Virus record (IMG/VR): IMGVR_UViG_3300024239_000017
Source of the DNA: a virus
Length of the DNA: 64,000 bases
Direction: 5' to 3' (one strand)
Positions 56,246 through 64,000 of the stretch are shown piece after piece; the stretch's first letter is position 1, and every line of letters begins with the position of its first letter. Made by a program: the position numbers and the translations under genes. Below the pieces are notes generated by a model that saw only the letters and a program-made list of their open reading frames with translations, ran no database searches and had not been told where the DNA came from.

Positions 56246-56279
56246 TTTGCATATGTCAAAAAATTTTCGTATGTTTGCA
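56246..56279 (+). promoter_or_regulatory. Conserved-spacer promoter
   Basis: TTTGCATATGTCAAAAAATTTTCGTATGTTTGCA. Confidence 0.85.
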
Positions 56280-56297: not shown

Positions 56298-57275
56298 ATG
56301 TTAAATAAAGAAGAAAGTAAAGAAGAGATATTAGAGTTATATAAAATATTTAAAAGTTCTGATATACTCGCGGAGAAGCTTCAAGAAAAATATGGATTGT
56401 ATGATACTTCAATATCATCATTATCTAGAAAAATAAGAAAATGGTTAGAGTACTATAGAAAAGAAGACAATATAATATTGGCAAAGAAAAATAAATCTCC
56501 TGCTAAAATACTTATTTTTGATATAGAAACTAGTCCAATAATAGGATATTTATGGTCTAAATGGCAGAACGGTATTAATGATGACGATATTATTCAAGAT
56601 TGGTCTATACTATGTTTTTCGGCAAAATGGTTATTTGAAGATGAGATTATATCACATAAATTAACCAAAAAAGAATTGAAAAAACTGGATGATTCTAGAA
56701 TAGTAAAAGAACTTTGGAAATTACTAGATGAAAGTGATATAGTAATAGGTCATAATGGAAAAAGATTTGATATTAAAAAAGCAAATGCAAAATTTATTAA
56801 ATATAGACTAAATTTACCGTCATCATATACAGTAATAGATACTTTATTACACGCAAGAAATAAATTTGCAATAACTTCTAATAAACTAGATTATTTAGGT
56901 GAATATCTAGGTGTTGGTAGAAAAATAGAAACACCTAAAGGAATGTGGAAGAAAGTAATGCAAGGAGATTATAATATGCTAGAAAAAATGGCAGAATATT
57001 GTGATGGAGATGTAAAATTACTTGAAGATGTATATTTAGAAATGAGACCTTATATACAACCGCATCCAAATATAGGTTTATATATAGAAGAGGATGTACA
57101 AGCATGTACGTGCTGTGGTTCAACAAATCTAAAAGATACAAATAAATCATATGTCACAACAGTAAACTCATATCAACTATTAAGATGCGGAGACTGTGGA
57201 AGTTTAATGAGAAGTAGAGTAAGTGATATACCTATAGACAGAAGAAAAAAAATATTAAGCTCTGTTCCACAATAG
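56298..57275 (+). CDS. RNase H-like (DEDD, YprB/RNase_H_2) exonuclease with C-terminal Zn ribbon
   Basis: FDIET, GHNGKRFD, IDTL, SNKLDYL, YCDGDV, CTCCGS..CGDCG. Confidence 0.85.
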   Translation: MLNKEESKEEILELYKIFKSSDILAEKLQEKYGLYDTSISSLSRKIRKWLEYYRKEDNIILAKKNKSPAKILIFDIETSPIIGYLWSKWQNGINDDDIIQDWSILCFSAKWLFEDEIISHKLTKKELKKLDDSRIVKELWKLLDESDIVIGHNGKRFDIKKANAKFIKYRLNLPSSYTVIDTLLHARNKFAITSNKLDYLGEYLGVGRKIETPKGMWKKVMQGDYNMLEKMAEYCDGDVKLLEDVYLEMRPYIQPHPNIGLYIEEDVQACTCCGSTNLKDTNKSYVTTVNSYQLLRCGDCGSLMRSRVSDIPIDRRKKILSSVPQ

Positions 57276-59998: not shown

Positions 59999-60262
59999 AT
60001 GAGTTGGACAAAGTTAGAAGAAGAAACAGCTAAAAAAGAGTATCTACTTATGATAGATACTCTTTATAAAAATGAGGAGTTCAAACATGAATGGACAGGT
60101 AGTTGGGATGATTTCAAAAAAGAAACATTTGGTAAGAAGCCTCAAAAAATAAAAGGTGATAAAAACAAATATATGAAATATTGGTTGGAAAACCAAAAAA
60201 TTATAAATGATTTAAATTGGGATAAAATAGAAGAAGACGAAGATATATGGGAGAATTATTAA
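59999..60262 (+). CDS. Hypothetical protein
   Basis: Coupled ORF. Confidence 0.55.
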   Translation: MSWTKLEEETAKKEYLLMIDTLYKNEEFKHEWTGSWDDFKKETFGKKPQKIKGDKNKYMKYWLENQKIINDLNWDKIEEDEDIWENY

Positions 60263-62892
60263 AATATTTTAACAATGATGGATTGGCATCAGAAGTATGG
60301 TCTAATAAATATAGACATGAGGGAGAGGTAACACCTGATGATATGCACAAAAGAATGGCAAAAGAGTTTGCTAGAATTGATGTAAATTATCAACTAACAG
60401 AACCTTTAAAAGAATCATCATTAAAGTCACACATTGATAGATTAAAAGAATTATCTGAATATGGTCAAAAAAGAAATAATTTAACTTATGAAAGTATTTA
60501 CAATCTTTTCAAAGATTTCAAATATATTGTTCCACAAGGTTCTATTATGTCTCAGTTAGGGGCAAAATCAATAGGTTCATTATCAAATTGTTTTGTTATA
60601 GGTCAACCTGAAGATTCCTATGGTGGAATCTTTAAAAAAGACGAAGAAATGGCACAATTAATGAAAAGAAGAGGTGGTGTTGGACTAGATATTTCAACAC
60701 TTAGACCAGAAGGTACCGCTATTAGTAATGCCGCAAAAACAACAACAGGTGCAATTTCATTTATGCACAGATTCTCAAATACTACAAGAGAAGTAGCACA
60801 AAAAGGTAGAAGAGGTGCTTTAATGTTAAGTATTGATATTAATCACCCTGATGTAATGAATTTCATTAAAATCAAAAGAGATGGGACTTCTGTAACAGGA
60901 GCTAATATTTCAATTAAGATTAATAATGAGTTCATGAAAGCTGTAGAGAATGATGAAGATTATATTTTAAGATTTCCTTGTAATTGGAATGTTAATGATG
61001 AAACATCAGGTTTAGAATATAATGAATTATCAACTTACTATGATTTTGATGGAACTATAAAATATAGAAAAAAAATCAAAGCAAAAGAGTATTGGAATGA
61101 AATAATTAAATCAGCTCATGGTTATGCTGAACCAGGGATTATATTCATAGATAATCATCATGATTATTCTCCAGACGGAGCTTATCCTCAATTTAAAGGT
61201 GTTACTACAAATCCATGTGGTGAAATTTTCATGCAACCTTACGATGCGTGTAGATTAATAGCTTTAAATTTATATAACTTCGTAGATAAACCGTTTATCA
61301 AAGATGCTGAATTTAAAGTAAAAGAATTTTATGAAATAGCCTATGAGGCTATGAGATTATCAGATAATCTTATTGACTTAGAACTAGAACATATTGATAG
61401 AATTTTAAATAAATTATCTAAAGATCCAGAAACTTCTGACGTAAAAGAAAGAGAAATTAAACTTTGGAACAATATCAGAAATACTGCCAAAGCTTCTAGA
61501 AGAACAGGGTTAGGATTTACAGCATTAGGTGACACAATTGCTGCGTTAGGATATAAATATGATTCAGAAGAAGCTTTATTATTTATTGAACAAATGATGC
61601 ACATTAAAATGGAAGCCGAGTTAGATTGTACTATTGACATGGCGGTTACTAGAGGTGCGTTTGAAGGTTGGAATTTAGAAAATGAATATTATACTTCAGT
61701 TAGACCATTTATAGGTAAAAATGATTTTTATGAAGTCTTAAGACAAGAATACCCAGATCAAGTTCTTAGAATGATTAAGTACGGTAGAAGAAATGTATCA
61801 TGGAATACAGTAGCCCCAACAGGAACTGTAAGTTTGTTAACACAAACAACTTCTGGGATAGAACCTATTTTTTCACAATATCCTTATATTAGAAGAAAAA
61901 AAATAAATCCTAATGAAAAAGGAGTAAGAGTAGACTTTGTTGACGAAATTGGTGATTCATGGCAAGAATTTGTTGTTATTCATCCTAAGTTGCTAACTTA
62001 CTTAAAAACAACAGGATTAGATTTTAATTTTGAACCTAAAAATAAAGAGGAGCAAGATATATTAGTACAGAATATAACAGAATTTTTAGATAAATACGAA
62101 TCTCCTTGGACTAATTCAACGGCTAACGACATTGATTGGATCAAAAGAGTTGAAATCCAAGGTATAATTCAAAAATATACTACACATAGTATATCTAGTA
62201 CCATTAATTTACCTTCAACTGTATCAGAAGATGAAGTATCAGAAATCTATTTACAGTCTTGGAAAAAAGGATTAAAAGGAATTACTGTTTATAGAGATGG
62301 TTCTAGAAGTGGTGTACTTATTGAAGCTAGTAAGGAAGAAGATAAAAAACTTGTTACATTTAATGAGAACCACGCTCCAAAAAGACCTAAATCTTTACCG
62401 TGTAAAGTAGTAAGGTTTAATAATAACAAAGAAAAGTGGATTGCTTTTGTAGGATTAATGGATAATAAACCTTATGAAATCTTCACAGGTAAAGCTGAAA
62501 ATGTTGATTTACCTATTTCTGTCGAAATAGGGGAAATCAAAAAAATATCTGATAGCGAAGGTATTAAAAGATATGATTTTATATACGAAGACGGTGTAAT
62601 AGAAGGTATATCTAAAGTATCTTCAACAGATTATTGGAACTACGGTAAACTTATATCAAGTATGTTGAGACATGGAATGCCTCTACCGTTTGTAGTTGAC
62701 ACTATTCAAAGTCTTACATGGGATAACGACAATATTAATACATGGAAAGCAGGTATGGCTAGAGCTCTTAAAAAATTCATTAAAGACGGTAAGGCGCAAG
62801 GATTTACATGTATGGATTGTGGTAGTGAAAACGTTGTTTTTCAAGAAGGATGTTTGACATGTAAAAATTGTGGATCATCAAAATGTGGATAA
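60247..62892 (+). CDS. nrdJ: Class II (B12-dependent) ribonucleotide reductase
   Basis: SLSNCFV, RRGALM, TNPCGE, ACRL, RRTGLG, VAPTGT, GLKGITVYRDGSR; C-terminal CxxC..CxxCGxSKC. Confidence 0.92.
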   Translation: MGELLKYFNNDGLASEVWSNKYRHEGEVTPDDMHKRMAKEFARIDVNYQLTEPLKESSLKSHIDRLKELSEYGQKRNNLTYESIYNLFKDFKYIVPQGSIMSQLGAKSIGSLSNCFVIGQPEDSYGGIFKKDEEMAQLMKRRGGVGLDISTLRPEGTAISNAAKTTTGAISFMHRFSNTTREVAQKGRRGALMLSIDINHPDVMNFIKIKRDGTSVTGANISIKINNEFMKAVENDEDYILRFPCNWNVNDETSGLEYNELSTYYDFDGTIKYRKKIKAKEYWNEIIKSAHGYAEPGIIFIDNHHDYSPDGAYPQFKGVTTNPCGEIFMQPYDACRLIALNLYNFVDKPFIKDAEFKVKEFYEIAYEAMRLSDNLIDLELEHIDRILNKLSKDPETSDVKEREIKLWNNIRNTAKASRRTGLGFTALGDTIAALGYKYDSEEALLFIEQMMHIKMEAELDCTIDMAVTRGAFEGWNLENEYYTSVRPFIGKNDFYEVLRQEYPDQVLRMIKYGRRNVSWNTVAPTGTVSLLTQTTSGIEPIFSQYPYIRRKKINPNEKGVRVDFVDEIGDSWQEFVVIHPKLLTYLKTTGLDFNFEPKNKEEQDILVQNITEFLDKYESPWTNSTANDIDWIKRVEIQGIIQKYTTHSISSTINLPSTVSEDEVSEIYLQSWKKGLKGITVYRDGSRSGVLIEASKEEDKKLVTFNENHAPKRPKSLPCKVVRFNNNKEKWIAFVGLMDNKPYEIFTGKAENVDLPISVEIGEIKKISDSEGIKRYDFIYEDGVIEGISKVSSTDYWNYGKLISSMLRHGMPLPFVVDTIQSLTWDNDNINTWKAGMARALKKFIKDGKAQGFTCMDCGSENVVFQEGCLTCKNCGSSKCG

Positions 62893-62910
62893 AATTAATA
62901 ATTTAATTAA

Positions 62911-62946
62911 TACATTTGTAGGATATTTTTAAATGTCCTACATTTG
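62911..62946 (+). terminator. Terminator hairpin overlapping a promoter
   Basis: tgtaggatattt/aaatgtcctaca stem; also TTTG-N20-TACATTTG. Confidence 0.6.
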
Positions 62947-62964
62947 TGTTTAAAATAATAAGAA

Positions 62965-63252
62965 ATGCCAGCAAAATCAAAAGGAAAAAGTAGTATGGAT
63001 TACTATAAACAGAATCCAGATAGCTATAAAAAGAAATTAGCCGCTCAAAAAGAGATAAATAAAAGACCAGAAGAAAGAAAAAGAAGGTCAGAGTTAGTAC
63101 AGGAAAGAAGAGATAGAGGTATCTATGGTAAAGGTGGTAAAGATGTAGCACATACTAAAAATGGTACTAGATTAAAAGACCCATCAACTAATAGAGGATC
63201 TAAAACTGATATGCCTGGTGATAGAAGAGCTAGAGGGGGAAAGAAGAAATAA
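62965..63252 (+). CDS. Small basic HNH-like protein
   Basis: GKDVAH..NRG motif; K/R-rich. Confidence 0.6.
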   Translation: MPAKSKGKSSMDYYKQNPDSYKKKLAAQKEINKRPEERKRRSELVQERRDRGIYGKGGKDVAHTKNGTRLKDPSTNRGSKTDMPGDRRARGGKKK

Positions 63253-63273
63253 GTTAATTTAAAAATTAACATA

Positions 63274-63391
63274 TTTGCATATTTAAAATATTATTTATAT
63301 ATTTGCAGAAGTTTAATAAAAGAATTAAAAAATTTAACAAAAATTTAACATTTAAAATTTGCATATGTCGAAAATATTTCGTATATTTGCA
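63274..63391 (+). promoter_or_regulatory. Two tandem promoters upstream of the tRNA leader
   Basis: 63274-63307 TTTGCATATTT..TATATTTGCA and 63358-63391 TTTGCATATGTCGAAAATATTTCGTATATTTGCA. Confidence 0.8.
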
Positions 63392-63410
63392 CTATTAAAA
63401 TTACAGAGTT

Positions 63411-63536
63411 ATGAAAAATTTGAACAATACATATTCGTCTCTATATAATCCGAGTTTACTTGGAGCGGATAAGGTATGGGATAATTTTAAACCGACTAAG
63501 TGTAGTGGAATTAATAGACTTTTAATGTTAACATGA
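63411..63536 (+). CDS. Putative leader peptide, 41 aa (MKNLNNTYSSLYNPSLLGADKVWDNFKPTKCSGINRLLMLT)
   Basis: Directly after the promoter and before a terminator; TCG, CCG x2, GCG codons, TGA stop; contains the antiterminator sequence. Confidence 0.65.
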   Translation: MKNLNNTYSSLYNPSLLGADKVWDNFKPTKCSGINRLLMLT

Positions 63537-63575
63537 GATTAATAATCTAGCATAATATAATTTTTAAAGTTAATT

Positions 63576-63616
63576 AAATCCCTACCTAAGAAATTAAGTA
63601 GGGATTTTTTTATTTT
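63576..63616 (+). terminator. Attenuator terminator in front of the tRNA array
   Basis: aaatccctac/gtagggattt stem, GAAA loop, U-rich tail. Confidence 0.85.
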
Positions 63617-63626
63617 ATAACAAAAG

Positions 63627-63701
63627 GGTCTATTGGTGTAATGGTAGCAGTCTCATCCTGTCACGGTGAGGGAGAGGTTTCGAATACCTCATAGACCGCC
63701 A
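63627..63701 (+). tRNA. tRNA-Asp(GTC)
   Basis: Acceptor ggtctat/atagacc, anticodon loop CTGTCAC, T-loop TTCGAAT, G73, encoded CCA. Confidence 0.92.
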
Positions 63702-63725
63702 AGTTGGAGAACTTTAAACTTAAAT

Positions 63726-63807
63726 GCGTGTCTAGCATAATGGTAATGCAGCGGTCTCCAAAACCGTGATTAGCTAATCAATGGGGGTTCGAATCCCTCG
63801 GCACGCG
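63726..63807 (+). tRNA. tRNA-Trp(CCA) with long variable arm
   Basis: Acceptor gcgtgtc/ggcacgc, loop CTCCAAA, 15-nt variable region, T-loop TTCGAAT. Confidence 0.88.
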
Positions 63808-63823
63808 CAAAATATATTTATAT

Positions 63824-63888
63824 TTATAGTTGAAGCAGTGATGCAGTATTAACTAATAGCTTAGAAGCTATACCTGATAAGACTATAA
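63824..63888 (+). ncRNA. Hammerhead-like three-way junction with non-canonical core
   Basis: ttatagtt-GAA-gca(GTGA)tgc-A-gta..tac-CTGATAA-gactataa. Confidence 0.35.
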
Positions 63889-63891
63889 TTC

Positions 63892-63965
63892 ATCCACATA
63901 GCTCAATTGAATAGAGCGATTGGTTACGACCCAATAGGTTTCAGGTTTGAGTCCTGATGTGGATA
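63892..63965 (+). tRNA. tRNA-Arg(ACG)
   Basis: Acceptor atccaca/tgtggat, anticodon stem attgg/ccaat with loop TTACGAC, T-arm tcagg/cctga. Confidence 0.88.
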
Positions 63966-63972
63966 CAATAAT

Positions 63973-64000
63973 GTTCAGGTAGCAAAGCGGTTAATGCAGT
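63973..64000 (+). tRNA. 5' part of a further tRNA, truncated by the window
   Basis: gttcagg-TA-gca-aagcggttaa-tgc D-arm pattern; anticodon not in window. Confidence 0.6.

Follow-up and report, generated by a model that had tools for sequence, protein, structure and literature searches.

A candidate ribosome-dependent transcription attenuator preceding the tRNA genes of a phage

Why phages carry arrays of transfer RNA (tRNA) genes and how these arrays are controlled are open questions, and phage tRNAs have been linked to escape from host defences that cleave tRNAs, such as PARIS (PMC11464382). Both questions are raised by the IMG/VR virus record IMGVR_UViG_3300024239_000017, of which a stretch of 64,000 nucleotides (nt; hereafter the window) was analysed. 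Close to the end of the window, which is AT-rich phage DNA with Bacteroidota-type promoters, a tRNA array is preceded by a short open reading frame (ORF), here termed the leader ORF, and by an intrinsic terminator that polymerase must pass to reach the first tRNA gene. What, then, admits polymerase to the array? We propose that the element may be a transcription attenuator that depends on ribosomes and heads the tRNA operon of the phage, an interpretation that we hold to be about evenly poised between right and wrong. All features described below lie on the + strand.

The consensus for Bacteroidota sigma-A promoters has been established in a Flavobacterium transcriptome study, in which the -7 box spans positions -12 to -5 relative to the transcription start (PMC9723704). 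A pattern scan for TTTG, a spacer of 17-23 nt and TAnnTTTG retrieved 18 matches in the window, compared with 5.2 expected. Promoter P1 (63274-63305; TTTG ... TATATTTG) is such a match and is kept in relatives. Promoter P2 (63358-63389), a member of a promoter family repeated in this phage, consists of TTTG at 63358-61, a spacer of 20 nt and TATATTTG at 63382-89, in agreement with the sigma-A pattern (-33 TTTG, -7 TAnnTTTG), and would place the transcription start at approximately 63394. The spacer of the P2 family is conserved, and sister copies precede ordinary genes, for instance that at 56246 ahead of the gene at 56298. The leader ORF (63411-63536, 41 codons) has its ATG 21 nt after the -7 box, the same spacing as found in the real genes behind sister promoters, and approximately 17 nt after the inferred start. 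It is followed by the terminator (63576-63616), comprising a left arm (63576-63590), a right arm (63595-63607) and a T tract, and 10 nt 3' of the T tract by the first gene of the array, encoding tRNA-Asp (GTC; 63627-63701). At other places in this phage, a new promoter stands between a terminator and the next gene, whereas here no TAnnTTTG box was detected by the pattern scan between 63537 and 63626. The original prediction for this locus had described just this succession of promoter, 41-codon ORF, terminator and closely following tRNA with no promoter in between, and it was confirmed throughout.

Relatives were gathered by exact look-ups and word searches with the leader peptide, by look-ups of a neighbouring protein of 95 amino acids (aa) and by one metagenome scan with the leader core; in addition, a profile search of 1.84 billion proteins returned eight members of the leader family, the contigs of which were fetched. 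Ten sequence types, or lineages, were distinguished: A (the window, L040, L045, L052, L054 and others), B (L046), C (L044), D (L043, a cut contig), E (L049/L051), F (L058), G (L061), H (L064), I (L065), J (L067) and K (L068). The order was the same in all readable types: the Bacteroidota promoter comes first, then the ORF (36-50 codons), the hairpin and its T tract, and finally tRNA-Asp as the first gene of an array. A P2-equivalent promoter was found upstream of the leader in all other lineages. The gap between hairpin and tRNA-Asp ranged from 6 to approximately 23 nt, which is too short for a promoter, so the tRNA genes appear to be reachable only via read-through. On this comparison, the arrangement of leader ORF, terminator and tRNA genes is conserved in diverged metagenomic phage lineages.

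The leader frame is open in all ten types, whilst only approximately 1-3% of random sequence of such composition would stay open for that length. Indels between leader types are multiples of three, and several of the differences are synonymous or conservative. These comparisons indicate that the leader ORF is translated. The encoded peptides form a small-protein family with the common pattern M-K-N...Y-S...N-P-S-x-L-G-A-D-[KR]-[LV]-W, for which no family was found in Pfam or PHROGs. In the variable parts, the window and its lineage B relative differ by 11 non-synonymous changes and one synonymous change, with no bias to synonymous change, hence the constraint on the leader is partly to keep it translated and partly something else. 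The possibility that the leader is a gene remnant was also considered and set aside, as there was no sign of this and no longer homologue of the peptide was found.

In the window, the terminator stem-loop (63576-63607) has a folding energy of -14 kcal/mol, and downstream of it come seven Ts, an A and four more Ts, as expected of an intrinsic terminator. All types have a hairpin of between -9 and -15 kcal/mol and a T tract behind it, and the arms have changed in concert: a C-G pair after the central UA has become U-A (H and I), an A-U pair G-C (I), and UAA:UUA has become UGA:UCA (E), whilst CCC:GGG has been shortened to CC:GG (E, H, I and J), a C/A mismatch has been replaced by U-G (J), and type C shows wobble-compatible transitions together with a paired deletion. 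For this comparison the terminators were folded singly, as paired deletions put the arms out of register in a four-terminator MAFFT/RNAalifold alignment. The predicted terminator is accordingly conserved as a structure across lineages. Searches against Rfam returned only tRNAs and sub-threshold noise over the terminator. The stem begins 39 nt after the leader stop codon. In Escherichia coli, a terminating ribosome suppresses a terminator within roughly 30 base pairs (PMC4824070); direct blocking of the terminator by a ribosome at the stop codon was considered unlikely, because 39 nt exceeds this range.

In every type, the segment that pairs best or nearly best with the left arm of the terminator lies 76-100 nt after the ATG. 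In the window, this segment falls in the last third of the ORF and is designated site 2 (63495-63510; core GTAG-T-GGA at 63502-63509). When nascent transcripts were folded with their 3' end placed before the terminator right arm, the minimum-energy fold in the window was a long predicted antiterminator hairpin (63499-63590), the 5' strand of which is the end of the ORF and the apex of which lies near the stop codon. Site 2 and the left arm form its base, such that the predicted antiterminator and the terminator are mutually exclusive. The probability that the core of the left arm pairs with site 2 in nascent RNA was 0.93 in A, 0.99 in B, 0.95 in C, 0.97 in F, 0.69 in G, 1.00 in H, 0.97 in I and 0.90 in J, and 0.08 in E; site 2 was hence the partner predicted for the left arm in eight of the ten lineages, the exceptions being E and K.

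Site 2 also varies together with the terminator. A three-way covariation was found between the left arm, the right arm and site 2, which read CCTAC/GTAGG/GTAGG in most types and CCTAT/ATAGG/ATAGG in H and I, where the change at site 2 entails a radical amino acid change from Cys/Ser to Asp; C and G each depart from the common triplet at one arm position. Own-lineage pairs of site 2 and arm averaged -10.2 kcal/mol, as opposed to -8.3 +/- 0.7 kcal/mol when permuted, and the own-lineage value was reached in 0.3% of permutations, although the types share ancestry and these combined statistics are therefore inflated, which counts against the attenuator. The free-energy gain from sequestering the left arm exceeded the shuffle mean in 9/9 types, with p < 0.05 in five. 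The codon usage of site 2 is likewise unusual, in that an Arg codon within it is the rare AGG (7.5% of the Arg codons of the phage) in 7/7 types with Arg at this place, and in type G the site 2 motif stands in another codon phase. The geometry is in accord with this: a Trp codon lies 7-20 nt (mostly 13-16) upstream and the stop codon 18-34 nt downstream, the latter distance being 24 nt in the window. In the window, the Trp codon, which is invariant in the family, and the adjoining Asp codon (63477-63482) are 16 nt upstream of site 2. With site 2 as the antiterminator strand, the Asp and Trp codons would thus fit the place where regulatory codons should sit, just upstream of it.

The original prediction had also called the locus an attenuator, but with a different antiterminator, in which an arm at 63472-63482 within the ORF pairs with 63578-63587 in the terminator left arm. 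This pairing is real in the window, consisting of 10 base pairs with one bulge and a duplex energy of -14.2 kcal/mol, which only 0.5-1.1% of dinucleotide shuffles of the leader reached (p about 0.01). It is confined to the lineage of the window, however, and is lost without compensation in relatives: in lineage B, the terminator of which is identical, GGGAT has become GGTAT and the duplex drops from -14.2 to -8.1 kcal/mol, and lineages C, E and G show no pairing at this position. In free nascent RNA its pairing probability is 0.06-0.07, in comparison with 0.93 for site 2. The arm was rejected on these comparative grounds as a conserved antiterminator. The same proposal had the antiterminator span Trp and Asp codons as a sensor of the first two tRNAs, the order of which in the array is Asp then Trp. 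A ribosome stalled on either codon would cover the arm and so favour the terminator, the opposite of the logic proposed. The original prediction had suggested a search of other phage tRNA arrays for this architecture with covarying antiterminators; the ORF and terminator recur in ten lineages and covariation is found at site 2, but not at 63472-63482.

Upstream of site 2, the ORF contains a further conserved structure, a 5' hairpin spanning codons 6-22 (63427-63477) with outer (63427-30/63474-77), middle (63432-37/63466-71) and inner (63449-54/63459-64) stems. In the ten-sequence alignment 91.7% of its cells were paired, against at most 48% when the partners were slid, and lineage G carries two compensatory pairs (U-A to C-G and G-U to U-A) in which all four substitutions are synonymous. 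The stems coincide with the most conserved amino acids of the peptide. This hairpin holds TCG, CCG and GCG codons, which had been viewed as rare codons overlapped by small alternative hairpins. The hairpins exist, the one formed by TCCGAG/CTTGGA (63449-54/63459-64) is conserved, and the codons are truly rare: NCG codons make up 4/41 of the leader compared with 7.7 per 1000 in phage genes, at least four of them occur in just 0.24% of 41-codon gene windows (p about 0.002), and the leader has a codon adaptation index of 0.52 as against 0.715 +/- 0.028 for genes. As these codons sit in stems of a conserved hairpin, RNA structure would explain them at least as well as programmed stalling, and their role as a stalling signal found no support.

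A possible order of events can be outlined from these elements. Host RNA polymerase would start at P2 (approximately 63394) and transcribe the 41-codon leader ORF, after which site 2 and the left arm would come together at the base of the hairpin and exclude the terminator. With smooth translation, the leading ribosome would unwind site 2 as it moved on towards the stop codon; the left arm would then be free, the terminator would form, and transcription would end 10 nt before tRNA-Asp. With ribosomes that are late, scarce or stalled up to approximately codon 25, site 2 would stay free, the antiterminator would form and polymerase would enter the tRNA array. The stall range would take in the conserved Asp-Lys/Arg-Val/Leu-Trp-Asp codons ending 16 nt before site 2. 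A ribosome protects approximately 12-15 nt beyond its A-site codon, so one positioned at or before Asp-x-x-Trp-Asp should leave site 2 free, whilst an advancing one should unwind it. We infer from this geometry the direction of the switch, the position of the ribosome as that which decides, and tRNA supply as the signal sensed. Both leader-peptide attenuation and partial termination have been reported in Flavobacterium (PMC9723704).

The choice of codons in the leader was compared with the tRNAs encoded downstream, using the array of L041, the closest relative with a long contig; the arrays of most types are visible only in part. This array comprises 14 tRNAs (Asp, Trp, Arg, Asn, Phe, Tyr, Pro, Lys, Val, Leu, Leu, Ser, Met and Thr), which serve 36/41 (88%) of the leader residues compared with 69.6% of residues in phage proteins (p 0.006). 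All ten types, which are related, were above baseline in this respect, and the L041 tRNAs read 22 of the first 27 leader codons against a baseline of 54%. Position 21 of the leader is Arg (AGA) in exactly the three types in which the second tRNA is Arg (TCT), and Lys in six others; since the three types share their sequence at this spot, the match probably reflects a single evolutionary event. The correspondence between leader residues and array is suggestive, not decisive. It would agree with a leader that acts as a multi-tRNA decoding test, the codons of which sample the downstream tRNAs, Asp and Trp first, such that slow decoding caused by a poor host tRNA supply or by host anticodon nucleases opens the terminator and tRNAs are made on demand; we regard this extension as possible but doubtful. 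Were it correct, tRNA genes would be under feedback control exerted through leader-peptide attenuation, which may then be widespread among the tRNA arrays of phages.

Several observations weigh against an attenuator, and some of them speak for a constitutive arrangement. Under the latter, P2 would simply drive a small-protein gene, and a leaky terminator would let a fixed fraction of transcripts read through into the tRNAs with no sensing of translation; the leak would stem partly from the upstream complementary segment, and after an RNase P cut at tRNA-Asp the hairpin would guard the 3' end of the small mRNA. Gene, terminator and promoter are the usual layout in this phage, and the hairpin adjoins the 5' end of the tRNA in all types. 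The peptide is conserved at the protein level beyond the need of a simple codon sampler, with synonymous variation both in the NPSxLGAD[KR][LV]W core and in a DYDGI tail, which suggests a function of the leader peptide itself. In six leader types (P0003, P0005, P0007, P0009 and P0010 among them) this tail reads D-Y-D-G-[IV] and directly precedes the stop codon; its codons vary synonymously, and this points to a role of the C-terminus that the attenuator model leaves unexplained. The leader also lacks a stretch of one repeated regulatory codon such as the trp or his leaders have. The terminator is favoured at equilibrium by 3.5-10.6 kcal/mol, forming in the window with a probability of about 1, so any switch would need to operate kinetically, in the manner of known attenuators. 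No upstream segment sequesters site 2, which the 5' hairpin (63427-63477) leaves out, so untranslated RNA would read through, unlike in trp; furthermore, a ribosome that pauses at the stop codon would leave site 2 uncovered. The site 2 duplexes of single lineages are modest (-8.7 to -13.1 kcal/mol; p 0.007-0.30), and the H/I covariation is probably one evolutionary event. Finally, types E and K are without a good antiterminator: the predicted pairing reaches only 0.08 in E, whilst in K an insertion has replaced site 2 and extended the leader ORF to 50 codons, and yet terminator and array are kept. A constitutive arrangement would, however, leave unexplained why the segment complementary to the arm is invariably found within the ORF, a fixed distance past the Trp codon, and why site 2 covaries with the terminator arm. 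The phage is also capable of placing a promoter directly before a tRNA, as in L041:9553-9669, where a promoter ends 12 nt upstream of tRNA-Met within the array, but it never does so before tRNA-Asp. We therefore consider constitutive read-through somewhat unlikely, though the main rival.

A third explanation is that the ORF and terminator form a closed unit, the array having its own unrecognised promoter over the terminator region, for instance a phage-specific middle or late one. Promoters of a modified polymerase would be missed by our scans, a TATA(A/C) motif lies 2-6 nt upstream of tRNA-Asp in several types, and two RNA-library contigs from one study begin at 63586/63587. Four metatranscriptome runs have contigs over parts of the region, but such contigs cannot show starts, ends or levels, and uncovered parts carry no meaning. 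One 202-nt RNA-library contig (X17) spans 63459-63660 without difference, bridging the ORF and tRNA-Asp across the terminator; it is weakly compatible with read-through, with DNA carry-over as another possible source. The region from 63537 to 63626 is devoid of a TAnnTTTG box, transcription begun upstream of the hairpin would still run into the terminator, X17 connects the ORF with tRNA-Asp, and the covariation of site 2 would go unexplained, hence a separate promoter seems improbable. Least probable, and in our view very much so, is the exact model of the original prediction, in which 63472-63482 is the antiterminator, the rare-codon hairpins compete with it, and the Trp and Asp codons within the arm sense the first two tRNAs. 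Its pairing is above chance in the window and rises to a probability of 0.61 with a ribosome placed at the CCG codon at 63450, and it could serve as an extra antiterminator in lineage A; against this stand its weakening in B and its absence from C, E and G, its low probability in free nascent RNA, and the masking of the arm by a ribosome at the Trp or Asp codon. The original prediction nonetheless recognised a real and unusual architecture and guessed its kind rightly, as a translated ORF, a terminator, a competing pairing within the ORF and tRNAs reached only by read-through are all supported; it was wrong in the specific pairing, in the role given to rare codons, and in the placement of the Trp and Asp codons within the arm with its attendant stalling logic.

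A number of further features of the locus and its relatives were recorded. In the window, tRNA-Asp is followed by an 83-nt tRNA-Trp (CCA; 63726-63808) and by tRNA-Arg (ACG; 63892-63966), and the array runs on past the window end. The tRNA-Trp at the equivalent place in L040 and L052 is 72 nt long. In the closest relatives (L040:6310-7190; L045:2355-2444), a tRNA-Trp of the window type is broken off in the anticodon loop and followed by an inserted cassette that has a promoter of its own and ORFs encoding 143 and 107 aa, then by a different tRNA-Trp, which is a mosaic replacement within the array. Other promoters inside the L041 array drive homing-endonuclease ORFs. The arrays of L061 and L062 are otherwise identical, but the anticodon of the first tRNA differs by one base, being GTC (Asp) at L061:1703-1779 and GTG (His) at L062:672-748, which may be an anticodon switch or an assembly error. 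The insertion in type K (L068:310-500) is GC-rich, strongly folding and approximately 190 nt in length, in a contig of low coverage, and may be a small mobile element. In the relatives L056 (1788-2053) and L057, a P2-type promoter drives another, longer ORF in place of the leader. The ribonucleotide reductase gene (60247-62892; 881 aa) is intact in the window, whilst in relatives (L040, L048-L057) it is split by homing-endonuclease ORFs or bears a LAGLIDADG intein; no tRNAs were found near its relatives in IMG/VR. The upstream gene for the 95-aa protein is widespread and shows no link to tRNAs.

Among isolated phages, the DNA search yielded no copy of the element, its sole match being a promoter-like one in Chryseobacterium phage MA9V-1, and a search with the family protein P0009 retrieved nothing; no copy of the terminator or leader core was found in IMG/VR. 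The promoter-like match comprises the P2 region (63339-63391), with 85% identity to L047:2501-2553, an intergenic segment before a coding sequence in MA9V-1. This likeness hints at a Weeksellaceae or Flavobacteriales host, and the hosts of these phages may more broadly be Flavobacteria-like. At approximately 230 nt the element is small, it is conserved across ten lineages, and it lends itself to direct testing by reporters in hosts of the Flavobacterium type.

The candidate attenuator may be compared with several known systems. In phages T4 and T5, tRNA genes occur in clusters that are interspersed with homing endonuclease genes and small ORFs and served by upstream early or middle promoters; the array described here is likewise grouped among homing endonuclease genes and small ORFs. 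We know of no leader-ORF terminator/antiterminator switch in the T4 or T5 clusters, and literature searches, which included these clusters, found no paper on such control of tRNA genes. T-box leaders share the terminator/antiterminator switch and a logic of tRNA supply, but they bind uncharged tRNA directly and contain no ORF, and no Rfam T-box match at E <= 1 was obtained in 62800-64000. Ribosome-stalling leaders are also found before antibiotic-resistance genes, the erm leaders being examples. Attenuators of this kind have been described for mef/mel (PMC4335068) and vmlR (PMC9226507). In all of these, as proposed here, a slowed ribosome on a leader ORF switches the fold of the RNA and the signal is general translation stress; they respond to drug-bound ribosomes and control resistance proteins, however, whereas the output here would be tRNAs, with no drug or arrest motif known.

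The closest parallel may be drawn with the leader-peptide attenuators of amino-acid operons, such as trpL, hisL, leuL, thrL and the ilv leaders. In common with the trpL type, a short leader ORF follows the promoter, an intrinsic terminator stands ahead of the regulated genes, the 5' strand of the predicted antiterminator lies in the leader ORF and competes for the left arm, and candidate regulatory codons are located just upstream of it. Unlike the trpL type, the regulated genes here are tRNAs in place of enzymes, the leader samples many amino acids with no single-codon run, the 1:2 pairing that would sequester the antiterminator is missing, the stop codon is found 18-34 nt past the antiterminator strand, the peptide sequence is conserved, and the host clade is one without Shine-Dalgarno-led initiation. 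If the proposed mechanism is true, tRNA genes would be regulated by translation itself, through a logic known for amino-acid and resistance genes.

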